Under the pieces are notes generated by a model. The model was not told the DNA's origin and did not search any database. It saw only the letters and a list, made by a program, of their open reading frames with translations. Below, piece by piece: positions 24,342-58,147 of a stretch of 64,000 bases of DNA. The position numbers and the translations under genes were made by a program. Origin of the DNA: a virus (Duplodnaviria > Caudoviricetes). The stretch lies in IMG/VR virus record IMGVR_UViG_3300025030_000042; one strand, given 5' to 3'. Position 1 is the stretch's first letter. The number at the start of each line of letters is the position of its first letter.

Positions 24342-24803
24342 ATGAACAGCCCGTTTAAACCAACTACAAAGGAATATATTACAGACGATAGGTTATTTAA
24401 AATTAATGAAGATTATATAACAGACGACGAAGAGAGCCCAGACTACTATGGACCTAAAACATTACCCATCGGAAGAGTATCTCTAAAAGAAATTATGGAT
24501 GCTTATAAAGATATAGATCCAGGTTGTGTTTATATTGAGGCGGGTTATGACGAGGGTTGGAATAAAGGAGAAAAACTTTACATTAAAATCCCAAAAACAG
24601 ATGAGATGTTTGCTGAACGGATGAAGAAATACGAAATAGAAATGGTTAAATATAACGAATGGTTGACACAACAAGAATATTGGAAAACTCCGGAAGGCAA
24701 AACAGAAAAACAAAGAATCAAAGAAGAGAAAAAGAAACAAAAACTTCTCAAAGAAATGGAAAAAATTCAAATAAAGTTAAATATATTGAAGGATGCGGAA
24801 TGA
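24342..24803 (+). CDS. hypothetical protein
   Basis: AAGGAG RBS; last plus-strand gene before convergence. Confidence 0.75.
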   Translation: MNSPFKPTTKEYITDDRLFKINEDYITDDEESPDYYGPKTLPIGRVSLKEIMDAYKDIDPGCVYIEAGYDEGWNKGEKLYIKIPKTDEMFAERMKKYEIEMVKYNEWLTQQEYWKTPEGKTEKQRIKEEKKKQKLLKEMEKIQIKLNILKDAE

Positions 24804-24886
24804 TAACAAATCGATCGCGGTTATCATAAAGAAAAAGAATGTTATCGATGCGTGGACACAACCGATACAACAATCGATAAGTGCGG

Positions 24887-25030
24887 TAAGTGGTCGATTG
24901 GGTAATGGGAGATATAAGAGAAATAAAGATAATAATGAAAAGAGAGAAACGAGCAGTAAATGAGAAGGAAGGAACGGTAAGGTCGTGTGTGGACGATAAG
25001 TGGACGATTGGATAATGGAAAGATAAGAGA
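24887..25030. repeat. imperfect purine-rich direct repeat pair (~34 bp, period 110)
   Basis: TAAGTGGTCGATTGGGTAATGGGAGATATAAGAGA vs TAAGTGGACGATTGGATAATGGAAAGATAAGAGA. Confidence 0.6.
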
Positions 25031-25148
25031 TAATGAAGATCGGGTGTGGACGGACGTTCGCGAACCAAACGGTTGTATTTCCGAAATAAAATAAATAAAA
25101 CCTTAAATCTGGAAAAATGGTCCGGGCGTTACGAATGGATATGCGCAC

Positions 25149-25316
25149 CCACTAGTGGCTACCCGAGTAGCCGGCTAATATACTATCCGGCTTCTGGACT
25201 TGCCGGCAATTCGACAAGCCACGGAAGTTGCGAAAGCCTGGCGACTCCGTTAGCCACGGCAAACCCGATAGCCGCCTGGCTACCAGACTTGCCGTGGCTG
25301 CAGTGTTAGCCGGCTA
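25149..25316. repeat. dense palindrome/inverted-repeat cluster
   Basis: CCACTAGTGG, TAGCCGGCTA x2, TTGCCGGCAA, AGCCACGGCAA/TTGCCGTGGCT; 8 TAGCC/GGCTA pentamers. Confidence 0.7.
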
Positions 25317-25821
25317 CCATCGCCTTGCGCAGCTTGCCAAGTGCCCGATGCTTTGCATTGCCTACGTCAATCTGCGAGATTCCCAGCATATCCGCGATAT
25401 CCTTGTTACGCTCGCCATTCAAGATCCACGTGAGCAAGCATTGCTCGTACTCGCTGAGAGACTGCATCGCCCTGCGGAGCCTATCAGAGTCCACTGCCGA
25501 TGCTAGTGCCTCTTCTGGCGTATTGGACTCGTCTGCTACTGCTGCCGCTTGATCGTCGCCTGCCACGGTCCTACGATGGCTGGCGCCCCGCAGATGGTCC
25601 ATGGTCGTCTGATATGCGACCATACCGCACCATGTTCCGAGCGATGCGCCACGGCTCGGATCGTACTTGTCAAGGGTTCCCTCGGCGAGTCTGAGGTATG
25701 TTGCTTGCACGCAATCATCACGATCCTGCAGGCGATTGAACTTGGCAAGCTGCTTGCTTACCAGGCCACAGATCAAGCCGTGGTATTTGCTGGCGACGGT
25801 CTGGAGGTTGGCAGTTTCCAT
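25306..25821 (-). CDS. ECF-type sigma70-family RNA polymerase sigma factor
   Basis: Region 2 DDCVQATYLRL..YDPSRGASLGTW; region 4 LSEYEQ..NKDIADMLGIS..AKHRALGKLRK. Confidence 0.9.
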   Translation of the reverse strand: METANLQTVASKYHGLICGLVSKQLAKFNRLQDRDDCVQATYLRLAEGTLDKYDPSRGASLGTWCGMVAYQTTMDHLRGASHRRTVAGDDQAAAVADESNTPEEALASAVDSDRLRRAMQSLSEYEQCLLTWILNGERNKDIADMLGISQIDVGNAKHRALGKLRKAMVAG

Positions 25822-25856
25822 TGTCGATCCCTTTCGTTTCGTTAGCGTCTGTAGCT

Positions 25857-25885
25857 ACTATGAACGATAGAGAATCGGTTGTCAA
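25857..25885 (-). promoter_or_regulatory. host-type sigma70 promoter of sigma gene
   Basis: TTGACA-17-CATAGT. Confidence 0.6.
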
Positions 25886-25950
25886 GCGTCAAAAGAAAAG
25901 TTTTTTCTCTATAGGCGCCCCGCAGAGACGTTTTCTGGAGTCGGGTGTTC

Positions 25951-26244
25951 TTATCGGGACCCTCGAAAAAAACGGTTATTCGCTCGAAGCCTACCGTGCT
26001 GAGACCGCTCGTAATGCTCGAGTGCCTGCGCAAGCTCCGAGCCTACGCGCCGCTCGTAAACGTCCCTGGCGAGCCATAGGAACGCCTGGCGTACCTCGGG
26101 AGTCAGCACGATCCCCGTTGCCCGATGGCGCCATACCTCGTGGCGAACATCCGATCGGGCGCGCCGGGCGGCCCACAAGCCGAGACAGACGGCGAGGAAT
26201 CCAACGGCGAGGGAAAGCGCAACAATCATTTCGATGGGATTCAT
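25951..26244 (-). CDS. membrane-anchored early protein
   Basis: N-terminal TM, AAAGGA RBS, own promoter. Confidence 0.7.
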   Translation of the reverse strand: MNPIEMIVALSLAVGFLAVCLGLWAARRARSDVRHEVWRHRATGIVLTPEVRQAFLWLARDVYERRVGSELAQALEHYERSQHGRLRANNRFFRGSR

Positions 26245-26276
26245 TGTTTATCGTCCTTTGTTGGTTCGTTCGCGAA

Positions 26277-26304
26277 GTTATACGATCGCCGCTGGGATTT
26301 ATTT
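26277..26304 (-). promoter_or_regulatory. phage promoter motif copy 1
   Basis: AAATA-N12-GATCGTATAAC. Confidence 0.8.
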
Positions 26305-26336
26305 GCTGCCGGGCACAAGAAAAAAGAACATTAACG

Positions 26337-26549
26337 CTATCCGTTCGATAGCGTTAATCGCTTCGAATCAAGTACATCGCATGCTCTGAGGAACCTATCC
26401 CGGTCGAATCGCGGGTTATCCACTTGGAATAGATCGGCTACATTGCCGATAATGCGCCAGATTGCCTTATCAGCGTCGGATCCTTCGTTTTCCAATATCA
26501 GCTCATGACGAAACATATCCGCAAACTTCTGATAGTCCTTTTTTGTCAT
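26337..26549 (-). CDS. early protein, DNPRFDRDRF family (paralog A)
   Basis: MTKKDYQKF..DNPRFDRDRFLRAC; start re-picked. Confidence 0.75.
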   Translation of the reverse strand: MTKKDYQKFADMFRHELILENEGSDADKAIWRIIGNVADLFQVDNPRFDRDRFLRACDVLDSKRLTLSNG

Positions 26550-26576
26550 CGGGAAGCCTTTCGTTGGGTTCGAAGG

Positions 26577-26604
26577 GTTATACGATCGTGCTAAAGGTTT
26601 ATTT
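26577..26604 (-). promoter_or_regulatory. phage promoter motif copy 2
   Basis: AAATA-N12-GATCGTATAAC. Confidence 0.8.
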
Positions 26605-26643
26605 GCTGCCGGACACAAGAAAAAAGAACACTTGATTAAGATC

Positions 26644-26978
26644 TCCTTAGAGCTAGATAGAAATTATTCTTTCTGGATAACCACCGAAAGAACCGGCTTT
26701 CAATGATATTCACTACTTACGAAAAGTCAAGTAGTTTAATGAAGAAACTCCCTAAGCGATGATAGAATGGTACCAACGAAAGGGCTAGCCGAAACAACCG
26801 ACTTTCAATGATATCAAGTGGTTATCCAGAAAGAACAATTTTGATTGACTTTTCCTTAGGGCTAGATAGAACGGTACCGAATGCATGCCGCCCGTAAACA
26901 AGCTGTTTTCAATGATATTCAATACTTACGAAAAGTCAAGTAGTTTAATGAAGATCTGCCCTAAGCGATGATAGAATG
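26644..26978. repeat. nested non-coding direct and inverted repeats
   Basis: 72-bp DR 26698-26769/26907-26978 (67/72); 24-bp IR 26661-26684/26818-26841 (1 mismatch); TTTCAATGATAT x3. Confidence 0.9.
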
Positions 26979-26981
26979 ATA

Positions 26982-27188
26982 TCACCGGCAGGGCACCCAC
27001 GTGGGCACGTCCTTCGAGCATGCTTTCAAAAATCGATCACGATCGAACCTCGCGCTGTCGGCCTGAAACAGATCAGCAGTTTTGCTAATAATGCGCCAGA
27101 CCACTGCGCGTTCATTGTCACCATCGGCGGCCACTAGTAACTCATGCTGAAACATATGGATAAACCGCTGGTAATCTTTCTTTGTCAT
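26982..27188 (-). CDS. early protein, paralog B of 26337..26549
   Basis: MTKKDYQRF..DSARFDRDRFLKAC. Confidence 0.75.
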   Translation of the reverse strand: MTKKDYQRFIHMFQHELLVAADGDNERAVVWRIISKTADLFQADSARFDRDRFLKACSKDVPTWVPCR

Positions 27189-27216
27189 TAGGGAACCTTT
27201 CGTTGGCGTTCGAAAA

Positions 27217-27244
27217 GTTATACGATCAAGGACGATCGATATTT
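27217..27244 (-). promoter_or_regulatory. phage promoter motif copy 3
   Basis: AAATA-N12-GATCGTATAAC. Confidence 0.8.
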
Positions 27245-27515
27245 CATTTTATTTTTTGTTCAATGATCTCGCGCGGTTGTCACTTTCTTTTTGATATGGT
27301 GAATTTTGGCGATCGGGGTACTATTTACTGTAAAATAGCGGTCCAATCGCCCCCTAACCGCTCCATTTACCCCATTTTCAATCAAAAATTCCCATCCTAC
27401 CCCAAACAGCGGGTGGCTACCAAGGGTAGTCAAAGGTTTATATATTTTTTCTATCGTAACTGCCTTGTCCGTTCTTACCCTGTTTGTTACGCCCCTTTCA
27501 TATTTTTTCTTTATG

Positions 27516-27899
27516 TTAACGCCGAACAATGATCGCGCCTTTCGCTTCCATTATCGTCAACCATACGTTAAGCCCAATCGAATCCGTACTTTTCAAAGAT
27601 GTTAAATCTCCATTCCATCTATGACCTTGCGTCGTTCCCTCATGTCCGATGCAACCTTCGAACAACGATCGCACATTATCATCCGGCAAAGCAAGATCGA
27701 GATTCGGATCTTCCCAGATATTCTTTACTGGATCGTTCGATTCGGTTAGCATCTTTTCCTTATCAACTAAAACCGGCGCTTGGCTTTCTTCGAGTCTCAA
27801 GGGTCCGCGTGAATACGTTCCAAATGACGATCGTCCTTTCTCATAATATCCAGCCAAGCCCTTGATCACAACGATCGGTTTATCATTCTTGGTTGGCAT
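27516..27899 (-). CDS. early hypothetical protein
   Basis: start re-picked after promoter copy 4, GAAGGA RBS. Confidence 0.7.
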   Translation of the reverse strand: MPTKNDKPIVVIKGLAGYYEKGRSSFGTYSRGPLRLEESQAPVLVDKEKMLTESNDPVKNIWEDPNLDLALPDDNVRSLFEGCIGHEGTTQGHRWNGDLTSLKSTDSIGLNVWLTIMEAKGAIIVRR

Positions 27900-27929
27900 T
27901 GAAAGATCCTTCTGTTGATTGCTTGTGGA

Positions 27930-27957
27930 GTTATACGATCGTGGATGGGTTTTATTT
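27930..27957 (-). promoter_or_regulatory. phage promoter motif copy 4
   Basis: AAATA-N12-GATCGTATAAC. Confidence 0.8.
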
Positions 27958-27958
27958 T

Positions 27959-28351
27959 TCATTTCTCCGAAACAAAATAGGGTCGCAATTCCCCTCGAAT
28001 ATCCCAATAATGTCCACTATGTGTTGCCAGATCGCAAACCTCTTTCGGACCATAGTCGAGCTTTTCGTAATAGTCCTCGCGATCCCTATGGGTCGAAACA
28101 ATCTTACCATCAGGCATCGTATAACAGAACACAATTTTGCGCGCAATCATATCGCGCGTTGCTTGCTTCCAACCATCGCAATAAGAAAAAACCCATTGCG
28201 GGCACTTTGCTTTTTTCAAGGATTCGGTGATCTCGCATTCCTCCTTATTGATATCGCTGGAAAGCATACCATAAATTTGTGCTTTGCTGTAAAGATCGGC
28301 AAGTTGTCGAATCGCACGATTTTGATGATTGTATGCAGTCTGGAATTTCAT
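27959..28351 (-). CDS. early hypothetical protein
   Basis: AAAGGA RBS, own promoter. Confidence 0.75.
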   Translation of the reverse strand: MKFQTAYNHQNRAIRQLADLYSKAQIYGMLSSDINKEECEITESLKKAKCPQWVFSYCDGWKQATRDMIARKIVFCYTMPDGKIVSTHRDREDYYEKLDYGPKEVCDLATHSGHYWDIRGELRPYFVSEK

Positions 28352-28381
28352 TTGCCGATCCTTTGTTGGATGGTTCGATCG

Positions 28382-28409
28382 GTTATACGATCGGGAGCGG
28401 TTTTTATTT
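28382..28409 (-). promoter_or_regulatory. phage promoter motif copy 5
   Basis: AAATA-N12-GATCGTATAAC. Confidence 0.8.
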
Positions 28410-28462
28410 TTGTTATCGCTCCCGATATCGTTATCCTTTGTCGCGCGCGCCTGGCGGGGCCA

Positions 28463-28735
28463 TCATCGCCGGCGCGATCCTCGGCCAAATTGGCCAAATG
28501 TTACCATTGTGGATGGGATCGCGTTAGCGATGAACTTTGCCATATCGCCGTACCAGTTTTGTGCGCGCGCTAGGCGAGAATATGGCAGGTTTTCAAAATT
28601 TTGCTTGAGATATTCCAATTCATCGCCGTCCGCTTGTATCTCTGTGACCAAATTTTCCGTATTCATAACTCTCAAGGTTTCGCCCACGTGCCATTGTACC
28701 TCTTTTCCGGAATTCAATATAATATAAAGTGCCAT
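28463..28735 (-). CDS. early hypothetical protein
   Basis: AAAGGA RBS, own promoter. Confidence 0.7.
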   Translation of the reverse strand: MALYIILNSGKEVQWHVGETLRVMNTENLVTEIQADGDELEYLKQNFENLPYSRLARAQNWYGDMAKFIANAIPSTMVTFGQFGRGSRRR

Positions 28736-28756
28736 CGGATGTTCCTTTGTTGGAAA

Positions 28757-28784
28757 GTTATACGATCGCCACTGGAGAATATTT
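28757..28784 (-). promoter_or_regulatory. phage promoter motif copy 6
   Basis: AAATA-N12-GATCGTATAAC. Confidence 0.8.
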
Positions 28785-28787
28785 GTT

Positions 28788-28970
28788 TTAACTCATCGCA
28801 GAATAAGCGATATGATTCTGCAGTGTTAGATCGGCTTCTCGTTTTGCCTCACTTTTGGTTCCAGCGGTCCATACGCTAACAACACACCGTCCGTAATGAT
28901 ACCAGTCGCAAAGCCAACCGCTATCCTTCTTTACCATTTTTAGAGTATATTGTTTCCTTTTGTTTTCCAT
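28788..28970 (-). CDS. early hypothetical protein
   Basis: start re-picked MENKRKQY. Confidence 0.6.
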   Translation of the reverse strand: MENKRKQYTLKMVKKDSGWLCDWYHYGRCVVSVWTAGTKSEAKREADLTLQNHIAYSAMS

Positions 28971-28978
28971 TGTTTTTT

Positions 28979-29152
28979 TTACTTCGCCTCTGTCTCTGTT
29001 TCTGACACGTTGAATCCCGTTTGCGTCAAGATTGCCCACAACGTTTTGACGTGCACGCTTTCGACCTTGTTTGCGTCAAGTTCATTCAGCCAGTTTCGCA
29101 AAATCTTTTGAAATTCCTCTCCGGTCATTTGACTTACATGTTTCCAAGCCAT
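28979..29152 (-). CDS. 57 aa early protein (not in track)
   Basis: MAWKHVSQMTGEEFQKILRNWLNELDANKV..; AAGGA RBS after promoter copy 7. Confidence 0.65.
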   Translation of the reverse strand: MAWKHVSQMTGEEFQKILRNWLNELDANKVESVHVKTLWAILTQTGFNVSETETEAK

Positions 29153-29183
29153 TGGATTGATCCTTGTTCGTTTCGTTCATAAG

Positions 29184-29211
29184 GTTATACGATCGTCGGC
29201 AGGATTTATTT
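29184..29211 (-). promoter_or_regulatory. phage promoter motif copy 7
   Basis: AAATA-N12-GATCGTATAAC. Confidence 0.8.
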
Positions 29212-29471
29212 CAAGCCTTCTTTCTTTTTGTTACCGCCGGAATTCCGGCCGCCGGAGACTTTCCTTGCTGCTCTGCTTCCGAATCCAAATGATCCAGAGC
29301 AATATCAACCACTTCGTTCTTTACCTTCGTTGTCGTGTTGTGCAAAGCCTTTAGATTGTTCCAGAAAATCGTCATATTCTGGCGTGCCAAAGCCGATCGG
29401 GCTTGCACCAGCGACTTTTCGATGGTTTCGAGAAGTTCCACAAGCGCCGTCTTTTCGTTTAGGGTGAGCAT
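29211..29471 (-). CDS. early coiled-coil protein
   Basis: 86 aa, own promoter. Confidence 0.7.
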   Translation of the reverse strand: MLTLNEKTALVELLETIEKSLVQARSALARQNMTIFWNNLKALHNTTTKVKNEVVDIALDHLDSEAEQQGKSPAAGIPAVTKRKKA

Positions 29472-29503
29472 TGTTGTCTTCTTTCGTTTATGTGTTGTGG
29501 TGG

Positions 29504-29531
29504 GTTATACGATCAATGCTGGAATTTATTG
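29504..29531 (-). promoter_or_regulatory. phage promoter motif copy 8
   Basis: CAATA-N12-GATCGTATAAC. Confidence 0.75.
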
Positions 29532-29948
29532 CCGATAAATGAAGAACATTTCGCCGTCAAGTTCCGCTTCGTTTTCCTCGCCGTCATAACCTGAAATGAA
29601 ATGCCCTCTGCCATCGGCAGAAATCGCATCATTGACAAAGTGATCAAAATCCTTGATCAGCGCTCGGATCGTATCGTTGGCATCCTCGCACTTTTCCTTT
29701 TGAAACGATTGAATCATTTTCTCCGCTTCCAAGGGTAGATCCGTATGTGACAGAATGAAACCGGTATTGAATGCCCAAAAACTTTGCTCGATTTGTTCCC
29801 TGCAACGCGTATTGGCTTCGTCATTGGTCAACACAAGAAAGTTTTCCCGTTCGCCGGAAACTTCAAAGCAATCGCTATCATAATCGTTTCGTGAAACATC
29901 CTCAAGATCACAATCGAGAAACTTTGCGAGGGCTTTTGCTTTTGTCAT
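29526..29948 (-). CDS. very acidic early protein, possible DNA mimic/antirestriction
   Basis: about 32 D/E vs 14 K/R in 140 aa; GRGHFISGYDGEE. Confidence 0.6.
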   Translation of the reverse strand: MTKAKALAKFLDCDLEDVSRNDYDSDCFEVSGERENFLVLTNDEANTRCREQIEQSFWAFNTGFILSHTDLPLEAEKMIQSFQKEKCEDANDTIRALIKDFDHFVNDAISADGRGHFISGYDGEENEAELDGEMFFIYRQ

Positions 29949-29995
29949 TGGATTAAAACCTTTTGGGCGAATACTTGATATAGCTTGCGTGGCAT
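29945..29995 (-). pseudogene. 16-codon remnant duplicating the start of 31615..32007
   Basis: MPRKLYQVFAQKVLIQ*, stop overlaps next ATG. Confidence 0.7.
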
Positions 29996-30034
29996 TTGAA
30001 AAACCTTTGTTGTGGTGTTCGAAGGGTTATACGA

Positions 30035-30400
<366 letters not shown>

Positions 30401-30425
30401 TGTGCTTGTTCCTTTGCTGCGGTGT

Positions 30426-30941
30426 TCAATGAGTTATACGATCGTCGACATATTTTCTTTTGAAGAATCTTTCGAGTCCTACCTTAAAAAAGAAATTGTG
30501 ATCAATGTCATTTGCTTTATAGGTTTCGCGCATACAATTAAAAAGAACATGGCTTAACTCGTGAATAAATGTAATGTATAGTTTATATTCCGTGCCGTTG
30601 GAGATTTTGATCGTTCTTTCATATGGTATCGTAACTCCGTTACATTGTTCAACATTATCTGAACACAGCACTGAATCTGAATCAAAGAATGTTATCTGTG
30701 TTATCGGAAGTTCTTCGTTTGCCATACAATCGAGCGTGGCATCATTAAAAACATTTCTCCAGAAATCAAGCGTTTCTTTTGTCCACACTTCGATCATTGT
30801 CTGCTTTGGACCGTTGATATTCTCCAATTTAACGTTCGAACCGTAACTTGTTCTATAGATATGATACGGTTCGATCGGATCGATTATTTCACAGCCGACA
30901 CAACAAATAACCACAATCAAAATATTTTGTTTATTGACCAT
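30426..30941 (-). CDS. putative lipoprotein with HExxH motif
   Basis: VVICCVGC signal/lipobox; FIHELSH; start re-picked. Confidence 0.6.
   Translation of the reverse strand: MVNKQNILIVVICCVGCEIIDPIEPYHIYRTSYGSNVKLENINGPKQTMIEVWTKETLDFWRNVFNDATLDCMANEELPITQITFFDSDSVLCSDNVEQCNGVTIPYERTIKISNGTEYKLYITFIHELSHVLFNCMRETYKANDIDHNFFFKVGLERFFKRKYVDDRITH
30433..30460 (-). promoter_or_regulatory. phage promoter motif copy 10
   Basis: AAAGA-N12-GATCGTATAAC. Confidence 0.7.
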
Positions 30942-31320
30942 AGACATTACCCTTGAAAACATAAAGATCATAAGATCCAAAAGACTTTGATTTTTCCGAA
31001 AGTTTGTCTCCCAATTCCCCAAGTCCACGATCCCAGAACCCTGCGCCATGGCCATTGCGCGTCAACCAAAAATCGTGTCCAGCGTGGCTTTCATCGTATT
31101 CCTCATAATATTCCATAAGTTCGACTTTTGCATACTCTTGAAAATCTTCACATTCCTTGATCATTTTTTTTAGAATCTTTGAATCAATATCCTCAATTCC
31201 ATAGTTATCTTCTAGTGATGCTTCCATTTCGCCGTCTTCCGACCATTCGGTCGAAGACCATAAAGCACGCTCAAGATAGCCTGTCACAAAATCACTTAGA
31301 TTATCAAGATCGATCGTCAT
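30931..31320 (-). CDS. acidic early protein (GHDFWLTRNGHGAGFWD motif)
   Basis: about 30 D/E vs 12 K/R; own promoter. Confidence 0.75.
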   Translation of the reverse strand: MTIDLDNLSDFVTGYLERALWSSTEWSEDGEMEASLEDNYGIEDIDSKILKKMIKECEDFQEYAKVELMEYYEEYDESHAGHDFWLTRNGHGAGFWDRGLGELGDKLSEKSKSFGSYDLYVFKGNVYGQ

Positions 31321-31351
31321 TTTGTTTCTCGCTTGTTGGGTTGCTTGTGGA

Positions 31352-31379
31352 GTTATACGATCGAACCTGGAGATTATTC
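31352..31379 (-). promoter_or_regulatory. phage promoter motif copy 11
   Basis: GAATA-N12-GATCGTATAAC. Confidence 0.75.
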
Positions 31380-31568
31380 GCTAGAATCTTCGATAAATGA
31401 ATAATTTTTATACAATGAGCCATCTATATATTTTATCATAATATAACTAAGTTTATTTCTATTTTCTCCAAAAAGAATACCATATAAACTCAAGATCGAT
31501 TCTGGATTACCAACAACACTATTGCACGAAGAATCTTGTTCGTCATATGCCCATTGCAGTATTAACAT
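31374..31568 (-). CDS. hypothetical protein
   Basis: AAGGA RBS; AT-rich. Confidence 0.55.
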   Translation of the reverse strand: MLILQWAYDEQDSSCNSVVGNPESILSLYGILFGENRNKLSYIMIKYIDGSLYKNYSFIEDSSE

Positions 31569-31614
31569 TTTCTTTGTTTTCCTTACTTTTTTAGAAAAAC
31601 AAATTTAACTTTGT

Positions 31615-32007
31615 TTACTCGCTATCCGGAATTTCATTTGTCAGAACATCATAGAAAATCTCTTTAATGTAATCTTTGATATCGTTTCGATTCTTTCCGG
31701 AAACCTTCACATTAATCTGATTGTCTAGCGAAGCGGTAACGGTAACTCTGTGGTTTGTCCAATCATCATAAAAACCATTTTCGTTCATATGATGAAATGC
31801 GGTAAAAAACATAAGCTTTTCGCCAGTTGAATAATCAAGATCGATCGTTGTTCCAGAGTCAAATCCCGATCCGCTGGGCATACGATTCTTAACAAGTTCT
31901 TCGATCTTTGTGGTATGGTTATCAAACCATACGTCATTGTCGTGCTTTTCGCAGTTACGGCGCGCCTGAACTGTGCTGGCGAATACTTGATATAGCTTGC
32001 GTGGCAT
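31615..32007 (-). CDS. early hypothetical protein (PSGSGFD..FHHM motif)
   Basis: 130 aa, own promoter. Confidence 0.75.
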   Translation of the reverse strand: MPRKLYQVFASTVQARRNCEKHDNDVWFDNHTTKIEELVKNRMPSGSGFDSGTTIDLDYSTGEKLMFFTAFHHMNENGFYDDWTNHRVTVTASLDNQINVKVSGKNRNDIKDYIKEIFYDVLTNEIPDSE

Positions 32008-32037
32008 TTGAAAAACCTTTGTTGTGGTGTTCGAAGG

Positions 32038-32065
32038 GTTATACGATTCAGGCTTAGAAACATTT
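32038..32065 (-). promoter_or_regulatory. phage promoter motif copy 12 (variant)
   Basis: AAATG-N12-AATCGTATAAC; GATC lost. Confidence 0.7.
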
Positions 32066-32283
32066 TAGCAATCCGCTTTGATACTGGTCAATGCTGCTTC
32101 CATGAATGAAGTTGTTTGTTTCTTTTTCTTTAGAATGGCGCGCATTTGTGCTTCTCGACGCTTCAGCCAATCGATCCAATCGAGTGTACAACGAAGACAT
32201 AAGGCGCAAGTTTCGGTCCATTTGTGCCCCGTGGCGGGGTGGAAAGGACCGCGACAGATTAAACATTGCGTTGGGCAAGTCAT
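32065..32283 (-). CDS. small zinc-finger early protein
   Basis: CxxC..H..CxxC. Confidence 0.65.
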   Translation of the reverse strand: MTCPTQCLICRGPFHPATGHKWTETCALCLRCTLDWIDWLKRREAQMRAILKKKKQTTSFMEAALTSIKADC

Positions 32284-32300
32284 TTTATTGTCTCCGGAGA

Positions 32301-32328
32301 GTTATACGATCGTCAATCGGATTTATTT
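32301..32328 (-). promoter_or_regulatory. phage promoter motif copy 13
   Basis: AAATA-N12-GATCGTATAAC. Confidence 0.8.
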
Positions 32329-32771
32329 CTTTTTTGTTGTGCCCGTCGCAAACATCGGGAATCGCTCGCATATGGCAGGACCGATCCATTTTGATACTCT
32401 TTTGCTATACTATCAATCAAATTGGACGGCAGTGTTTTCGCAATGATAGTTGCCCAACGATTGATATCACGATCGGACAAGGGAGGTTGAATTGGCGCAA
32501 TGTCGCTTGCTTGCGATTCTAGGGACCTGTGCGCCTCGTGGGGGCGTCGGGAAACATTTTGTGATGCGTTATGTCCATTTTGCTTAAATCGCCTCTCACG
32601 AGAAAAAAACACTCTCTTTTTTATAATCCTTTCCGCACACCAAAAAGAAATCCATCCCACGACAAATCCAATGAAATATATGCTCGTTGTCCAAGATGGA
32701 GATCCCCAAGAAAATGCCCAACAAATCAAAAAAGCTGGCGATACGATCGAAAACAATCTTAAAAGTTTCAT
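32313..32771 (-). CDS. membrane protein (2 N-terminal TM)
   Basis: 152 aa ORF. Confidence 0.5.
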   Translation of the reverse strand: MKLLRLFSIVSPAFLICWAFSWGSPSWTTSIYFIGFVVGWISFWCAERIIKKRVFFSRERRFKQNGHNASQNVSRRPHEAHRSLESQASDIAPIQPPLSDRDINRWATIIAKTLPSNLIDSIAKEYQNGSVLPYASDSRCLRRAQQKRNKSD

Positions 32772-32794
32772 TAGTTTTCATTTGGTTTTGTTTT

Positions 32795-33004
32795 TCAAAA
32801 TTCCGGCATATCCGGTTTGATCATTCCCAAAAGCAACGCTTGTTCCGCTCCAATAACCTTGTGCTCGCCACACTCCGGACAATCGTAGCCTTCCGCGTCA
32901 GGTTCGGTTGTGTCACGAGTGAAATCTTGACAAACCGGACACCAGCCTTGATATGAATCAACGGCATCTTGATAGTCTTCGAAGGAAACGACGATGGTTT
33001 TCAT
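32795..33004 (-). CDS. acidic zinc-ribbon protein
   Basis: GWCPVC..EPDAEGYDCPECG. Confidence 0.75.
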   Translation of the reverse strand: MKTIVVSFEDYQDAVDSYQGWCPVCQDFTRDTTEPDAEGYDCPECGEHKVIGAEQALLLGMIKPDMPEF

Positions 33005-33005
33005 T

Positions 33006-33215
33006 TCACTTCTTCCATATTTTTATAGTTTCTTCAGTAGCGTCTTCAAGTGGACACCAATCAGGACAACTATCAATATCTTTAATCTCTTTTTTGTTCA
33101 TAGCAAAACAAATGTGGTATTTTGCTTCTTGATAAAAATGATGATCGGCGGTATATACTTCCTTTCTATTCCTACAATACATACAACTTGGTACAAGAAT
33201 CACCATTTGCTTCAT
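33006..33215 (-). CDS. Cys-rich hypothetical protein
   Basis: CxxC..C..CPDWCPL; start re-picked. Confidence 0.65.
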   Translation of the reverse strand: MKQMVILVPSCMYCRNRKEVYTADHHFYQEAKYHICFAMNKKEIKDIDSCPDWCPLEDATEETIKIWKK

Positions 33216-33430
33216 TGCCCCTGCTCCGCGCAACTTCCGGAGCAAACGGAACGAGGTTCGCCCATATCGCACTCGAAACGGTCATCATCATCATTGTTTT
33301 CGTCAAGTTCATCGATCATCTCGAATGTCTCTTGACGATTTCGAGAACGATTGTAAGCCACCTTGCTTTGATGGGCGAGATCCCACTTGTTTCGAATCGG
33401 ATGAAGATTCTTGTGTCGATTGATTTTCAT
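33212..33430 (-). CDS. early hypothetical protein
   Basis: follows promoter copy 14. Confidence 0.6.
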   Translation of the reverse strand: MKINRHKNLHPIRNKWDLAHQSKVAYNRSRNRQETFEMIDELDENNDDDDRFECDMGEPRSVCSGSCAEQGQ

Positions 33431-33483
33431 TGTCGTTCTTTCATTTGTTTCGTTAGTAATTCGTTAGTAAGTAGGTTCGTTAT

Positions 33484-33511
33484 GTTATACGATCGAAACT
33501 GAAGATTATTT
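33484..33511 (-). promoter_or_regulatory. phage promoter motif copy 14
   Basis: AAATA-N12-GATCGTATAAC. Confidence 0.8.
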
Positions 33512-33733
33512 CTTATATTTTCTTTCAATGCGCGCCATAATATTCAACGCTACATCTTCCGAAATCTCTCTATTGAAATGTTCCATAACTCCAGCAAATC
33601 GCACGGCATCGTCAATGATCCATCCTTCGTCAAAAAATCGTCCAAAATCGTCAGTAAACATACCTTCGCACTCAGGATCCAAAAGGGGCGGCAAACGGCG
33701 CCACACTTCTGTTATATATTCGTTTTTATTCAT
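33506..33733 (-). CDS. hypothetical protein
   Basis: 75 aa. Confidence 0.65.
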   Translation of the reverse strand: MNKNEYITEVWRRLPPLLDPECEGMFTDDFGRFFDEGWIIDDAVRFAGVMEHFNREISEDVALNIMARIERKYKK

Positions 33734-33737
33734 TTTT

Positions 33738-33947
33738 TCAAACCTTCTGCGTTTCGACTGCTTCAGCAGCCTTGATCAAAGCCATCGCAAGTTCACGGGC
33801 TTGTTCGGGTTTCAAAGATGCTGATTCGTGATTATTCAAAGACAATAGAACCAAATAATACGATTTTGAAGGCAATACGCACGCACAGTGATTTTCCGAC
33901 CACATAAAATCCATATGCTCTCCGCGCTTCAAATCCTTGATAATCAT
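33738..33947 (-). CDS. hypothetical protein
   Basis: LKPEQARELAMALIKAA helix motif. Confidence 0.65.
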   Translation of the reverse strand: MIIKDLKRGEHMDFMWSENHCACVLPSKSYYLVLLSLNNHESASLKPEQARELAMALIKAAEAVETQKV

Positions 33948-34110
33948 TGGTCATTTCCTTTGTCAGAGATTGTTACGAATATATTCCCTTAGATTCTTCA
34001 AGGATTGAGAAAGTTCGTGCATCCATTCAAGTGTGTTTTTTGTTTGCGACGGTGGTTTATTATCCATTTTGAATGCCTCTTTTCACATCTTTATCAATCC
34101 CTCAAGAATC

Positions 34111-34142
34111 GCACCGTCCGACCATCATCGATCGGACGGTGC
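34111..34142 (-). terminator. strong GC hairpin after 34153..34689
   Basis: 11-bp IR GCACCGTCCGA/TCGGACGGTGC; weak U tract. Confidence 0.55.
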
Positions 34143-34152
34143 CTTGTTGTCA

Positions 34153-34689
34153 TTACGCAACCTTCTTGTTCTTGCGTGATCCGCTTGCAGGCGGGGGTGT
34201 CAACACTTCGTTTGCCAGACGATCCAGAAACTCGTGACGATTTGCCTCGTTCGCTTCCTTGGCGCCTTCCTGGCGACCCGACACGCTGTAACAGTATCGC
34301 GTCAGAAGCTGTCCAAGATGCGTCAACGAATCTCCAAGGGTCTCGACACTACGATCCCATTCCGAATCGATCAACGCGCCGGCGTGCTGAACAAGGATCC
34401 GTTCGGCCTGTGCGCGATCCTCAACGGTCTTGCTCGTAACGCTCGGACCCACACCATAAGCGCGCTTTGGCTTTGCAACGGACTGACAAGCCTCAACCAA
34501 TCGCTCTGCATCTCGAAGTAGATCTACCTTCTCAAGATCGATCCCCTCACTCTCCGAAACCTGAATCAGATCTCGCATATTGAAGTTGGTGCCTTTGATA
34601 ACGTTCAGGGCAGACACCAACTTGCGAGCACGCTTCTCAACATCACTCAACGGTCCAGTCTTCGTTCCTGCAGTACGTCCACGTGGCAT
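34153..34689 (-). CDS. GC-rich early protein with AT-hook-like N-terminus
   Basis: MPRGRTAGTK; basic C-terminal tail. Confidence 0.7.
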   Translation of the reverse strand: MPRGRTAGTKTGPLSDVEKRARKLVSALNVIKGTNFNMRDLIQVSESEGIDLEKVDLLRDAERLVEACQSVAKPKRAYGVGPSVTSKTVEDRAQAERILVQHAGALIDSEWDRSVETLGDSLTHLGQLLTRYCYSVSGRQEGAKEANEANRHEFLDRLANEVLTPPPASGSRKNKKVA

Positions 34690-34801
34690 GTTACTCTACC
34701 TTTCTTGCGTCATTGACGCTTGTTGTTGCTCCGACATTGGAGCGGTTATCCCATCTCTTCTCTCGTTCCCGTTCCCGTTCGTCTTCGTCTTCTCACATTG
34801 T

Positions 34802-34829
34802 ATTATACGATCGAACCTTGTCAATATTT
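34802..34829 (-). promoter_or_regulatory. phage promoter motif copy 15
   Basis: AAATA-N12-GATCGTATAAT. Confidence 0.8.
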
Positions 34830-35096
34830 TTTTGTTCGTAACGACGGAAAAAGTTTTTTCGTGATCTCGCAATTGTCTTTACCAACGGTCCGAATCTTCA
34901 TCAAATAGCGCGCGTGCTCGAATGCTTCCTCGCGTGTGGAAAAAATTCCATAGACTTGACGCGGGGATAATCCGCCGACAGTCTGGATCATTAGACTGAT
35001 GAAGTTACTTTCGAAAGCAATATCATATAATTCACTATCTTTTGTGGGATAGGTTACGATCCAAAAGGTGAGCAGTAGATCTCTGGAGATTTTCAT
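34821..35096 (-). CDS. hypothetical protein
   Basis: 91 aa. Confidence 0.6.
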   Translation of the reverse strand: MKISRDLLLTFWIVTYPTKDSELYDIAFESNFISLMIQTVGGLSPRQVYGIFSTREEAFEHARYLMKIRTVGKDNCEITKKLFPSLRTKKY

Positions 35097-35101
35097 TGTT
35101 A

Positions 35102-35362
35102 TTATTCTTTTTCCGGAATCTTATATGTTGCTGGTTTGATTTCTTTTCTATGCCCACAACATTTACAAGTTTCAAATTCAGCAGGAGTATTTTCTTCTAG
35201 TTCAATATAATACTCGTCGCCATTTCCATTTGTTTGATCTACTTCGTTGAACCATACGCACAACTCCCGACAATACGGGCAACCCTCTTCATAATCATAA
35301 GCATCTTCTGTCCATTGATGACCATTTTTACAAAGAAGTTGTGTATATCCTTTGTATGACAT
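35102..35362 (-). CDS. zinc-ribbon protein
   Basis: CKNGH, CPYC, CKCCGH. Confidence 0.7.
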   Translation of the reverse strand: MSYKGYTQLLCKNGHQWTEDAYDYEEGCPYCRELCVWFNEVDQTNGNGDEYYIELEENTPAEFETCKCCGHRKEIKPATYKIPEKE

Positions 35363-35381
35363 TTTTTGTTATCTCTAGTGA

Positions 35382-35409
35382 GTTATACGATCCACATTGT
35401 TAAATATTT
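35382..35409 (-). promoter_or_regulatory. phage promoter motif copy 16
   Basis: AAATA-N12-GATCGTATAAC. Confidence 0.8.
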
Positions 35410-35410
35410 G

Positions 35411-35479
35411 TTCCTGGGAAAGGATTTGAACCTTTACTTGGGATGATCAGTCCTGCCTCTACCATTGGGCTACCCAGGA
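35411..35479 (-). tRNA. tRNA-like element with 3-bp anticodon stem (loop CUGAUCA)
   Basis: TCCTGGG/CCCAGGA, GCC-CAATGGTAGA-GGC, GGA-CTGATCA-TCC, AAAGG-TTCAAAT-CCTTT; ends A-CAA. Confidence 0.65.
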
Positions 35480-35513
35480 AAAAGTAAACCGGGGTAGTTA
35501 TTGTCTCTACCCC
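35480..35513 (-). terminator. intrinsic terminator
   Basis: GGGGTAG/CTACCCC hairpin then TTTACTTTT. Confidence 0.65.
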
Positions 35514-35529
35514 AGTCTGGTTTGTTATA

Positions 35530-35835
35530 TTACGCAAGATTGAATCCCTTCAGAGTTAGAAAGTAACTCGTCTCATCACGAGCACTCTGAACCACATATC
35601 CCAACTCGACATACCGCGCCAGGGTCGGGGCACTGAAAAGACTCTCGTCGAAGCCCTGCCCCGCCATCAAGTCACCGTTACGAATCAGCACGCGAAGTTT
35701 GCTGACACGATCCACCTTGATACCTGCCGGGCGACCACGCTTGCGCCTCGGAAACTCCACAACACCGCTCTGCTCGATGCTCTGCTCGACACTCTGTACC
35801 GGAACCACCCGAAGCTGAAGATTCATCGTGTCCAT
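35530..35835 (-). CDS. GC-rich early protein with AT-hook
   Basis: RRKRGRPAG; GGAG RBS. Confidence 0.7.
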   Translation of the reverse strand: MDTMNLQLRVVPVQSVEQSIEQSGVVEFPRRKRGRPAGIKVDRVSKLRVLIRNGDLMAGQGFDESLFSAPTLARYVELGYVVQSARDETSYFLTLKGFNLA

Positions 35836-35865
35836 TTGCTCCTGCCTTTCTTGTTTGTTCGCTCG

Positions 35866-35893
35866 ATTATACGATCGGACCTGAAGAATATTT
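35866..35893 (-). promoter_or_regulatory. phage promoter motif copy 17
   Basis: AAATA-N12-GATCGTATAAT. Confidence 0.8.
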
Positions 35894-35905
35894 TGTTTTC
35901 TTTCT

Positions 35906-36157
35906 TTAGTTCTCGCCCTTCTTTGGTGACATTGACACTTTTCTCATTTCAACCAAGTGTTTCGCTACCTTGACTGTTTCGACCATTTCATATACGAAGT
36001 TGAACTCTTCAATCAATCCCTTTTGTTTAATGATTTCCAAAATATTCCGAAGATCAACATACCGATAAAGATCGGTGGTTTCGCTACTATGAATGAGCAT
36101 AATTTTAACATTACAACCTTCGATCAATAGATCGAGATGCGATGATTCTTTTTCCAT
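35906..36157 (-). CDS. hypothetical protein
   Basis: 83 aa. Confidence 0.65.
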   Translation of the reverse strand: MEKESSHLDLLIEGCNVKIMLIHSSETTDLYRYVDLRNILEIIKQKGLIEEFNFVYEMVETVKVAKHLVEMRKVSMSPKKGEN

Positions 36158-36166
36158 TGCTCGCCT

Positions 36167-36385
36167 TCAACTTTCTTGTCGCAAATCATTCATCATACAT
36201 TTAGAAATGGATATCTGTAGTTGTTGACACGGGCGCATCAAAAAACTTTCGTCATACCATTTAATACAATCGTCTGAAAACCAATAAACTTCATATCTCC
36301 TTTCTTGATAAGAAACAACGATCCCTAGTGATTCGTCATCATAGATTCTGGAAATGAAATCACCGATGGCAAACTTTCGATTCAT
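36167..36385 (-). CDS. K(V/I)GDL-family protein
   Basis: FAIGDFI..LGIVV..YEVYWF. Confidence 0.7.
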   Translation of the reverse strand: MNRKFAIGDFISRIYDDESLGIVVSYQERRYEVYWFSDDCIKWYDESFLMRPCQQLQISISKCMMNDLRQES

Positions 36386-36386
36386 T

Positions 36387-36728
36387 TTACTTTCCTTCAT
36401 AAATCTTCTTTAATCTTTCAAATTCGGCAAGTTCCTGCTGCTTTTGTTGTTCAACTTGTTCTTTTTCTTTTGTAATCCTATCCTGAAACTCTTCGTCTGT
36501 TTCCAATCGTCGACCACAAACTTTTACAACAACCGATTCTTCACGATCATAAGCAGATTCATAACCTTTTTCAATATCAATACGAACCTCGTCTTCGTCG
36601 ATATTTTCTTTTGCCGCCCATTCTCTGAGAATAAGGCAAGTTTTTTCTATTGCTTTCAAAGTTTCGAAACCGCTTACACCAAAATAATAGGGATGATTTG
36701 GCATATAGATAGTTTTATGTTTTTTCAT
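36387..36728 (-). CDS. hypothetical protein, paralog of 39851..40186
   Basis: ETDEE..RLKKIYEGK; start re-picked. Confidence 0.7.
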   Translation of the reverse strand: MKKHKTIYMPNHPYYFGVSGFETLKAIEKTCLILREWAAKENIDEDEVRIDIEKGYESAYDREESVVVKVCGRRLETDEEFQDRITKEKEQVEQQKQQELAEFERLKKIYEGK

Positions 36729-36820
36729 CTGGAAAACACTCCTCTTAAGATCCATCCTAATACAAACGCCAACGCAAGAAATATCATTGATATCTTTATT
36801 GAATTTTGTTCGTCGTTCAT
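36725..36820 (-). CDS. 31 aa membrane peptide
   Basis: AGGAGG RBS after promoter copy 18; MNDEQNSIKISMIFLALAFVLGWILRGVFSR. Confidence 0.6.
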   Translation of the reverse strand: MNDEQNSIKISMIFLALAFVLGWILRGVFSR

Positions 36821-36846
36821 TTTGACACTTCCTCCTTCTACCACGG

Positions 36847-36874
36847 ATTATACGATCTATGTAGCAAAATTTTT
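36847..36874 (-). promoter_or_regulatory. phage promoter motif copy 18
   Basis: AAAAA-N12-GATCGTATAAT. Confidence 0.7.
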
Positions 36875-37071
36875 CAGAAAATCGTCAGCAACGGTCGCTT
36901 TAAAGCATTTTGTTCGGCGGAAAGCAACTTTTGTGCCAAACTTTTTTTCATATTTGTGATCCGGCTTACGAAAAAAAAATCGTCCGACGAGAAATATTTC
37001 CTTGACCGCAGAGGTAGAAACGCTATCCTATAATCGTATCATTCAGTAACCGTCGTCACCAAGGAGACACC

Positions 37072-37260
37072 ATGAAAGTCCGCGACCTGATCGAGACCCT
37101 CAAAACAATGAACCCCGAGAAACCCCTTCAATGTCGCCACGTTAAGTTTGCCCATTGCGGTTCAACCAAGATCGAATCGGTATTCCAGATTACAGTCGTT
37201 GACCGAAACGGGGAACTCTTGCTCTCCGATTCTGAAGATCTCACCGACGAGAATCAGTAG
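37072..37260 (+). CDS. small hypothetical protein (MKVRDLIETL)
   Basis: AAGGAG RBS; TTGACC-16-TATCCT upstream. Confidence 0.7.
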   Translation: MKVRDLIETLKTMNPEKPLQCRHVKFAHCGSTKIESVFQITVVDRNGELLLSDSEDLTDENQ

Positions 37261-37326
37261 CCCACCCCACAATCATCTCCCCCGCATTGTAAAAAATTCA
37301 CTCTGTTGGGGGAGATCTTTCCCGCA

Positions 37327-37354
37327 TTGACAAGTCCTTTCTCCATCGTATAAT
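37327..37354 (+). promoter_or_regulatory. consensus sigma70 promoter
   Basis: TTGACA-16-TATAAT, preceded by ATCG. Confidence 0.8.
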
Positions 37355-37397
37355 CCAATAGTAAATCACTTTTGGTAAAGAAAGAGAGGATGAAACG

Positions 37398-37730
37398 ATG
37401 GCAAAAGGATTCAAATGTAATGTGTGCGGGTCGATGACGGTCCACAACAAGGGATCACACCAGCAGTGTTCCACGTGTCGCACGGTATCGTGGAGTTGGG
37501 AACAGGGAGTTCGTGGTCTTGGTTCGGGTCGGGGGCATAAGTGCCCTTGGTGCACGCTTCCGACGCTTCATATTGTCAACACATATAGTTGTGGAGACGG
37601 AACGGAACTGGATATTTCGCGTTGTTCGACCTGTAACTACAGGTCGATCACCGATGCCAACTGGAATCAAAAGCCGGACGGAAAGGGGGTAGAAGATCGA
37701 ACGGAAATAGAAGAAAAACATCTCTCATAA
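37398..37730 (+). CDS. multi zinc-ribbon protein
   Basis: four CxxC pairs. Confidence 0.7.
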   Translation: MAKGFKCNVCGSMTVHNKGSHQQCSTCRTVSWSWEQGVRGLGSGRGHKCPWCTLPTLHIVNTYSCGDGTELDISRCSTCNYRSITDANWNQKPDGKGVEDRTEIEEKHLS

Positions 37731-37745
37731 TCTCCCGCCCATATA

Positions 37746-37940
37746 TCATTCAACAATATGCTCGATGTTACATTCGGTCAACATCGAGCATATTCTTTTT
37801 TTATCTTCTTTATCAATACAATAAGTTAGAATATCATAAATCTTTGATTTGAATTTGGGATAACCAAGATTTGTCATTGTTCGAATGGTTTCATTAGAGA
37901 CTTTCACAAGAACCAAAACAGTTTCTTTATTTTGTTTCAT
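37746..37940 (-). CDS. hypothetical protein
   Basis: 64 aa. Confidence 0.55.
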   Translation of the reverse strand: MKQNKETVLVLVKVSNETIRTMTNLGYPKFKSKIYDILTYCIDKEDKKRICSMLTECNIEHIVE

Positions 37941-57655: not shown

Positions 57656-58147
57656 TTATCTATCCAAAATTTCAAAATAAGGGGAATCATTGATACAAAG
57701 ATTTCGACATCCGCTATCAAAAACAACCACCATTGAAGGAAATGGAGCAGAGTTTTTGCTATCGCCAAACTTCAATCGACCTTTGACAAAATATATTTTA
57801 TATGCTTTCATACAATATTGATGAAAAGACTTCGTATCTGTTCTTGCCGGCAAAAGCATTACTACTTTAGTATTCGGTTTAAGACTCTCCAAATATCCCT
57901 TCTCAACCCATCGCTTAAGATCTTTTCCGTAAGGCGGGTTATTATATATAACATTATTACTCCAATCTTGTTTTAGCCCATCATCTTCAACGGTGTAAAA
58001 CTTTGAACATTTGGCATTTTCTTTTGTTGACGCCGGATCCAAAGTAAATGGACCGAACATAGTATTTAGTTTGTTATAAAAACCTTGTGGTGTAGCCCAT
58101 TCGTTATCTTTGGAGGAAAATAAAACTTCTTGTGTTTTTTTGTTCAT
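57656..58147 (-). CDS. phage DNA N6-adenine methyltransferase (T1/HP1 Dam-type)
   Basis: EWATP, LDPAS, DGLKQDW, NPPY, LLPARTDT, GRLKF. Confidence 0.88.
   Translation of the reverse strand: MNKKTQEVLFSSKDNEWATPQGFYNKLNTMFGPFTLDPASTKENAKCSKFYTVEDDGLKQDWSNNVIYNNPPYGKDLKRWVEKGYLESLKPNTKVVMLLPARTDTKSFHQYCMKAYKIYFVKGRLKFGDSKNSAPFPSMVVVFDSGCRNLCINDSPYFEILDR

Follow-up and report, generated by a model that had tools for sequence, protein, structure and literature searches.

Why should one two-part motif stand ahead of gene after gene on a single strand of phage DNA, and what would read it? The question is raised by IMG/VR record IMGVR_UViG_3300025030_000042 (Duplodnaviria; Caudoviricetes), a stretch of 64,000 nucleotides that is called the window below. 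The initial annotation had noted 18 copies of AAATA-N12-GATCGTATAAY in this stretch and had taken them for a dedicated, undescribed class of promoters. We found the same array, and we found that the compositional island that holds it ends with a gene for a small sigma factor of the extracytoplasmic function (ECF) type. The array is most likely a self-contained module of a sigma factor and its regulon, of a known general kind and with a new recognition sequence.

The source of the window is a huge phage seen solely in groundwater and soil metagenomes. The same sequence is carried by circularly permuted contigs of 210,922 bp, e.g. NCBI CACVFN010000001.1. To reach the flanks of the window, we walked outward on public contigs of the same phage via exact-protein look-ups. 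Motif scanning covered 121 of ∼211 kb, that is, the 64-kb window, 38.8 kb on its left and 18.4 kb on its right.

Sequence and confinement of the motif

GATCGTATAAY was found in 18 copies spanning 26277–36857, on the minus strand only, and the positions given in the initial annotation were reproduced exactly. Seventeen copies were perfect, and the copy at 32038 carried one mismatch (AATCGTATAAC). When up to one mismatch was allowed, the window held 23 matches against 3.05 ± 1.84 in shuffled sequences, and none of 100 shuffles reached 23. A core of 11 bases is identical in 17 of the 18 copies. The final base of the motif is C in 15 copies and T in three (34802, 35866 and 36847). As had been claimed, AAATA lies exactly 12 nt upstream in every copy, with 17 bp between it and TATAAY; it is perfect in 13 copies and has one mismatch in five (29504, 30433, 31352, 32038 and 36847). 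The spacing from AAATA to CGTA is 15 nt in all 18.

A 39-nt position weight matrix was built from the sites and used to scan both strands of the 64 kb. Above a cut-off of 12 bits it returned exactly the 18 sites, with scores of 22.8–48.4 bits. No site was present in the 38.8 kb to the left or the 18.4 kb to the right (best score 1.5 bits; no core with one mismatch). The earlier statement that no full copy lies outside the block thus holds for the window and the fetched flanks, and the motif is confined to 10.6 kb within the 121 kb scanned.

Each copy precedes a ribosome-binding site (RBS) and an ATG, again as first described. The distance from the end of the motif to the ATG is mostly 17–32 nt, with longer distances at 33484 (53 nt) and 34802 (112 nt). 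The copy at 30026 stands 30 nt ahead of a truncated mini-open reading frame (ORF) and 77 nt ahead of the real gene. At 36847 the ATG lies 26 nt downstream and opens an ORF of 31 amino acids (aa). Two further elements, neither of them mentioned in the initial annotation, follow the core: a semi-conserved yGAAC after 4–5 nt, and then an RBS of the AAAGG type.

The 18 copies head 18 putative transcription units of one to four small genes each, ∼30 genes in total. At nine copies the AAATA box abuts or overlaps the stop codon of the gene before it, which leaves no room for terminators, and a clear hairpin followed by a U-run was seen ahead of copy 1 only. With terminators so rare, transcription from any copy should continue downstream. 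We also considered that AAATAA is kept merely as the stop codon of the upstream gene. This is true of 3 of the 18 copies, and stops occur at many different offsets.

The motif was then compared with known classes of promoters. The initial annotation had held that genes outside the block use TTGACA promoters, and the count agrees: 17 sites match TTGACA-N16-18-TATAAT at 11 or more of 12 positions, against 3.5 ± 1.6 in shuffled sequences. Three of these are perfect, 6 of 17 carry TGn, and 16 of 17 have T at −7, the exception being TATAAC. Among the motif copies, none has TTGACA at the right spacing for a primary sigma factor (copy 15 merely overlaps a separate TTGACA-N16-TACAAT), 15 of 18 have C at −7, and all 18 read TCG at −15 to −13, where an extended −10 would have TGn. 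A sigma factor without region 3 is unable to read TGn. A TGCTT-like box, as in middle promoters of the T4 type, was found in none of the copies. ECF promoters have a CGT or CGTA −10 element, a spacer of 14–17 bp and close adherence to consensus (PMC5758882), and the motif shows all three.

A sigma factor gene at the end of the array

The last gene of the array, absent from the initial annotation, encodes a sigma factor (Table 1). Region 2 was matched by PF04542 (E = 2e-8, 34.4 bits, cutoff 24) and the region 4 helix-turn-helix by PF08281 (6.9e-7, 29.3 bits, cutoff 25.7; residues 113–164). The sigma-70/ECF superfamily model TIGR02937 covered residues 9–168 with 73.5 bits (cutoff 42.9). Regions 1.1 and 3 are absent, and at 171 aa the protein has the short length of group 4 factors (∼170–200 aa). 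Its best PDB match was the M. tuberculosis ECF factor SigL. In an exhaustive search of 1.8 billion representatives the protein was an orphan, with its own cluster at 78% identity and the next relative at 32%. A search for it in viral contigs returned nothing.

This is the sole array gene that has a host-type promoter in place of the motif. Directly upstream of it lies a gene for a 97-aa membrane protein, the only anti-sigma candidate, which had no match to anti-sigma families. No terminator was found between copy 1 with this gene and the sigma gene (fold z = −0.76), so read-through from copy 1 into the sigma gene is possible. The sigma stop codon is followed at once by the stable structure, where the leftward transcription unit ends. 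Plus-strand genes converge on this structure from beyond, and it has no Rfam match.

Table 1. Features of the promoter array, the island and related loci. Scores are from the 39-nt weight matrix.
Feature	Coordinates	Strand	Score (bits)	Remarks
GC-rich island	25000..37750	-		sigma gene, 18 putative promoters, ∼30 small genes
Very stable structure	25160..25305	-		includes a 22-bp perfect hairpin; −74.9 kcal/mol, z = −5.8; directly after sigma stop
Phage sigma factor, group 4/ECF-type	25306..25821	-		171 aa; sigma-2 + sigma-4; last gene of array
Host-type promoter of sigma gene	25857..25885	-		TTGACA-N17-CATAGT; conserved in all three relatives
97-aa protein	25951..26244	-		N-terminal transmembrane helix; predicted to be driven by promoter 26277
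Motif copy 1	26277..26304	-	48.4	AAATA-N12-GATCGTATAAC; orthologous copies in L016–L018
Intrinsic terminator	26330..26358	-		12-bp hairpin + U-run; directly upstream of copy 1
Motif copy 2	26577..26604	-	43.6	
Motif copy 3	27217..27244	-	38.6	its gene is a paralogue of the copy 2 gene
Motif copy 4	27930..27957	-	44.4	
Motif copy 5	28382..28409	-	42.5	
Motif copy 6	28757..28784	-	39.5	
Motif copy 7	29184..29211	-	43.1	
Motif copy 8	29504..29531	-	37.6	CAATA
Motif copy 9	30026..30053	-		shares with copy 12 an exact 70-nt duplicate of core, leader and first 15 codons
Motif copy 10	30433..30460	-	36.5	AAAGA
Motif copy 11	31352..31379	-	43.5	GAATA
Motif copy 12	32038..32065	-	37.7	AATCGTATAAC, AAATG; sole copy without GATC
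Motif copy 13	32301..32328	-	43.4	
Motif copy 14	33484..33511	-	43.6	
Motif copy 15	34802..34829	-	29.7	TATAAT; overlaps sigma-70-like TTGACA-N16-TACAAT
Motif copy 16	35382..35409	-	33.8	upstream box abuts 3′ end of tRNA-Ile-like gene
Motif copy 17	35866..35893	-	41.2	TATAAT
Motif copy 18	36847..36874	-	22.8	TATAAT, AAAAA; weakest (leave-one-out 6.1); first of array
Divergent sigma-70 promoter	37327..37354	+		perfect TTGACA-N16-TATAAT; CATCG before −10; upstream edge of island; predicted to drive 110-aa gene
Phage Dam-family adenine methyltransferase	57656..58147	-		PF05869

The relatives of the block are three short contigs from another metagenome (L016–L018), whose sigma factors are 78–80% identical to that of the window. 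They hold 10 further motif sites (22–43 bits), each of which lies on the strand of the sigma gene and is followed by an RBS and an ATG. In the orthologous alignments AAATAA and GATCGTATAA(C/T) are invariant, the 12-nt spacer varies, and the leaders differ by indels. CGTA is present in all 18 copies of the window and in 9 of the 10 sites of the relatives, the tenth reading TGTA; GATC is present in 17 of 18 and 9 of 10, respectively. Over positions 24684–27523 of the window, identity to these contigs is 71–85% in the island and 90–93% in the backbone beyond sigma. The boxes are therefore conserved against a fast-evolving background. By this comparison the island is a fast-evolving region at a conserved position and not a recent insertion unique to this phage. 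Some sites of the relatives precede genes that are missing from the window. Such differing cargo, together with the exact 70-nt duplicate (29966–30035 = 31978–32047, repeat family D8) that takes in core, leader and gene start of copies 9 and 12, suggests that the promoter copies may also serve as recombination handles.

Taken on the letters themselves, every computable test speaks for the claim that the copies form a dedicated class of promoters: their single strand, the RBS and ATG behind each, the fixed boxes, the relatives, and the absent sigma-70 determinants. Wider searches gave no other footprint. Megablast against 50,697 phage records returned no relatives of the block at the DNA level. 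A scan of IMG/VR for the core plus yGAAC gave three unrelated single matches and no cluster. A scan of metagenomes for AAATA-N12-GATCGTATAA, a pattern that proved too unspecific, gave single chance matches, with no cluster among the matches listed. Contigs L008–L015 are strain variants, 99.8–100% identical to the window, and carry no footprint information.

Candidate readers of the motif

On balance we lean towards the view that the 18 copies are promoters of one private programme, which host core RNA polymerase (RNAP) would read with the ECF-type sigma factor of the island. The sigma factor is proposed as the reader because its gene adjoins the motif array and shares its strand and its compositional island. 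A sigma factor with both sigma-2 and sigma-4 also fits the motif, since a bipartite promoter requires both.

Under this proposal the host primary-sigma holoenzyme would fire the conserved promoter ahead of the sigma gene. A second entry point may be the upstream end of the array, where the same holoenzyme may recognise the three TATAAT variants, including the one that overlaps a TTGACA. The phage sigma factor would then displace host sigma on the core enzyme, domain 4 reading AAATA at about −34 to −30 and domain 2 reading GATCGTATAAC at −17 to −7; promoters of the ECF factor sigma-W have the same CGTA core. Transcription would start at the A of the semi-conserved yGAAC, 6–8 nt downstream, and would give leaders of 20–30 nt in which AAAGG is the Shine-Dalgarno sequence. 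Because terminators are rare and most upstream boxes overlap the preceding stop codon, transcripts could run through the array into the sigma gene and produce positive feedback. Some 30 tiny proteins of unknown function would be made in one burst, presumably to take over the host or to counter its defences.

Several observations weigh against this proposal. ECF promoters have AAC in the −35 element, whereas the conserved box here is AAATA; AAC occurs upstream of some copies, without a fixed position. TATAAC agrees with the sigma-70 −10 hexamer at 5 of 6 positions and stands at the canonical 17-bp spacing, which leaves room for host sigma with a helper protein. ECF factors usually autoregulate, yet the sigma gene is preceded by a promoter of another type than the motif. 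The exhaustive search returned no sigma relatives between 32% and 78% identity, and the co-occurrence of sigma and motif in the three related contigs amounts to that of one whole syntenic block. The ∼90 kb of genome beyond the scan might hold other copies or a phage RNAP. Finally, all 20 of the listed runs with the block are DNA according to their records (groundwater or soil metagenomes), and promoter activity and the position of the transcription start are therefore predicted from sequence.

T4 middle promoters join a MotA box to a sigma-70 −10, with appropriation by AsiA. The array resembles them in that a phage-specific upstream box replaces the canonical −35, and in that a class between early and late serves many small genes. 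By analogy, host sigma-70 might read TATAAY here while a MotA/AsiA-like phage factor binds AAATA and/or GATCG, and the island sigma would serve other targets. We regard this as unlikely, if with some claim to attention. TATAAY has 5 or 6 of the 6 bases of the −10 hexamer, the upstream box lies at the canonical 17 bp, C at −7 could be selected for activator dependence, and many small proteins of the island are without assignment, with zinc-finger-like motifs in some of them. However, T at −7 is one of the two bases that primary sigma reads most stringently, and it is the base replaced in most copies; TGn is also lacking. Among the 30 island proteins there was no Pfam or PHROG match to MotA or AsiA, the rest of the genome lying outside that search. 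Moreover, a two-domain sigma gene ends the same island, with no other enriched motif for it to serve. In these respects, a −10 without T at −7, no MotA/AsiA homologue found in the island and a dedicated sigma factor, the array also departs from the T4 middle class. It is distinctly improbable that the copies are plain early promoters of the unmodified host holoenzyme, a strong −10 class without −35, with the phage sigma factor a product that acts elsewhere. Dense tiny genes, each with a strong promoter, do resemble early host-takeover modules like the one of SPO1, and three copies are perfect TATAAT, one of them overlapping TTGACA. Against this, the 17 near-consensus TTGACA/TATAAT promoters with TGn in the same phage show what host sigma prefers, and the motif is without all three determinants. 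The invariance of GATCG and of C at −7 has no role in recognition by primary sigma, and the window held no second enriched motif, or any other enriched word, as a possible target of the phage sigma factor.

A different reader has an equally low probability: a phage RNAP in the remaining 90 kb, a gp55-like late sigma candidate, or a host alternative sigma. The near-invariant 11-mer recalls the promoters of phage RNAPs. However, no RNAP gene was found among the Pfam annotations of the 121 kb examined, and a conserved box 17 bp upstream of the −10 suits sigma factors and not single-subunit RNAPs. The sigma-28 consensus is TAAA-N15-GCCGATAA, and TAAA and CG-ATAA-like strings within the two boxes are superficially like it, but in sigma-28 promoters the spacing is longer by 4 nt. 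The gp55-like candidate is a 238-aa protein (L141:15225-15941) that is encoded directly before large structural genes, 33 kb left of the window. Its match to the T4 gp55-type late sigma family (PHROG 234, E = 0.0016) is weak, and it had no Pfam match. By this match late transcription probably has its own factor, and the island sigma is then not needed to explain it. The proposed late motif also differs from that of the island: we rejected the identification of the motif with ACTATTTA, which has another sequence and is not enriched in the window. Least probable is a role other than that of a promoter, as a recombination or cassette junction, or as an RNA-level signal (a processing or translational operator site) before each gene. 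The exact 70-nt duplication and the different cargo genes behind the same motif in relatives do suggest shuffling. Yet the motif has two boxes at fixed spacing around a free spacer, its distance to the ATG varies (17–112 nt), and the copies show no evident RNA structure in common. Shuffling at repeated promoters is moreover a known by-product, as in the PeSL cassettes of T4, and not an alternative function.

The preferred reading, a phage sigma factor that redirects host core RNAP, has close precedents. In phiEco32 the sigma factor gp36 lacks region 4 and reads a single element, tAATGTAtA, with the start 6–8 nt downstream; gp47 of phage 7-11 has region 4, and for that reason its promoters are bipartite, GTAAtg-N16-aCTA (PMC8948821). 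As is proposed here, a divergent ECF-like phage sigma is expressed from a host-type promoter and directs host core RNAP to a few near-identical promoters. The island sigma shares region 4 with gp47, and the element of phiEco32 shares the GTATA core with the island motif. The motif as a whole is different, and no sequence relationship between the sigma factors is detectable beyond family level. The known factors serve six to eight middle or late promoters across a podovirus genome of 70 kb, structural genes included. In contrast, the 18 promoters predicted here lie in 10.6 kb by the sigma gene, ahead of tiny genes of unknown function only, and the phage has a separate late-sigma candidate. The initial annotation had called the programme undescribed. 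This stands for the recognition sequence; phage sigma factors with private promoter sets are already known (PMC8948821). Sigma factors are also commonly encoded by jumbo phages without their own RNAP (PMC7824862), and huge phages have been described with sigma-70 genes and AsiA-like proteins (PMC7162821).

Among bacterial factors, B. subtilis sigma-W (TGAAAC-N16-CGTA; PMC5758882) offers a likeness in its two domains, the CGTA core of its −10, a spacer of 14–17 bp and adherence to consensus. Compared with bacterial ECF regulons, the island has AAATA and not AAC, no identified anti-sigma, a host-type promoter for the sigma gene, and a −10 box that extends to 11 invariant bases. The arrangement of the genes has its own parallels. 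The PeSL cassettes of T4 and the host-takeover module of SPO1 are hyperplastic regions made up of small, functionally unassigned genes, each with a strong promoter, in which promoter copies are substrates for recombination. The exact 70-nt duplicate and the different cargo genes in relatives are similar. Those systems differ from the island in that they use early promoters of host sigma, and here a stem-loop partner is present at one copy only (26330–26358).

We also considered a bolder version, which is quite unlikely. The island would be a portable cassette of sigma factor and regulon, its promoters gated by phage Dam methylation of the GATC at −17 to −14, and its copies would act as handles for swapping cargo by recombination. 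That the phage Dam enzyme modifies GATC in 17 of the 18 promoters is speculative. If methylation gating is true, an orphan sigma factor would fire in one methylation state (unmethylated, hemimethylated or fully methylated), and the burst of ∼30 small proteins would be tied to injection or replication.

The novelty lies in the recognition sequence, in the orphan lineage of the sigma factor, in the density of 18 predicted promoters in 10.6 kb, and in the presence of the sigma gene and its whole apparent regulon in one compositional island. If the pairing of sigma factor and motif holds, two promoter classes, host-type and island, are resolved from sequence alone in a huge phage known from metagenomes only. 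The ∼30 genes of unknown function would be marked as one co-regulated set and would be first candidates for host takeover or anti-defence. An orphan sigma factor less than 35% identical to anything beyond its own small cluster and a promoter that avoids every determinant of housekeeping sigma also make a candidate for an orthogonal sigma-promoter pair, and the 28 natural variants of the promoter could serve as a library of strengths. A sigma factor and regulon within one fast-evolving island suggest that such programmes can move or evolve as modules.

Other features of the island and the genome

The G+C content of the island is ∼44%, with 57% in its last two genes, compared with 32–34% in both flanks and in the fetched extensions. 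Searches with 30 island proteins gave four weak single-member Pfam matches, including an Anti-TRAP-like and other zinc-finger-type proteins, and six PHROG families of unknown function. A hexamer repeat, (GAGAGT)n, lies at 30089–30154 on the minus strand, within the gene at 30035–30400, and is translated as an (ES)n run close to the C-terminus of an island protein of 121 aa. Its copy number varies between metagenomes, being 11 in the window, 4 in L009 and 12 in L015.

Between two paralogous units of promoter and gene, positions 26600–26995 form a stretch of 390 nt without credible ORFs. It contains direct repeats of 105 and 209 nt, each with a sigma-70-like TTGACT-N16-TATCAT and a small hairpin, and may encode small RNAs. 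In the non-coding gap just past the end of the island, at 24880–25040, direct repeats of CCATTAyCCAATCGwCCACTTAyCG occur on the minus strand; they may be of the iteron type or be left over from a junction. A tRNA-Ile(GAT)-like gene at 35410–35479 on the minus strand (ARAGORN; Rfam tRNA, 43.4 bits) is the sole tRNA in the window.

The window also encodes GroEL, a GMP-reductase/IMPDH-type enzyme, adenylosuccinate synthetase, RNA ligase, an R2K ATP-grasp protein and two methyltransferases, Dam and MT-A70. The fetched flanks carry a large sugar-biosynthesis cluster, structural genes, gp32, RecA/UvsX, DnaB, ribonucleotide reductase and a split DnaE. At 47362–47667 the window has an unrelated-looking 101-aa protein without a domain match, and a variant of this locus (L003:6278-6673) encodes a 131-aa protein with a sigma region 4 domain (PF04545, 27.8 bits).

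Short palindromes were unevenly distributed. GTAC, CATG and CTAG are strongly avoided in the flanks of the island, 1–24800 and 36900–64000 (observed/expected 0.05–0.16), and more weakly in the island (∼0.3). GATC is over-represented (1.3–2.6), and CGATCG is 14-fold over-represented in the island. The avoidance of palindromes and the excess of GATC fit restriction avoidance combined with self-methylation by phage Dam.

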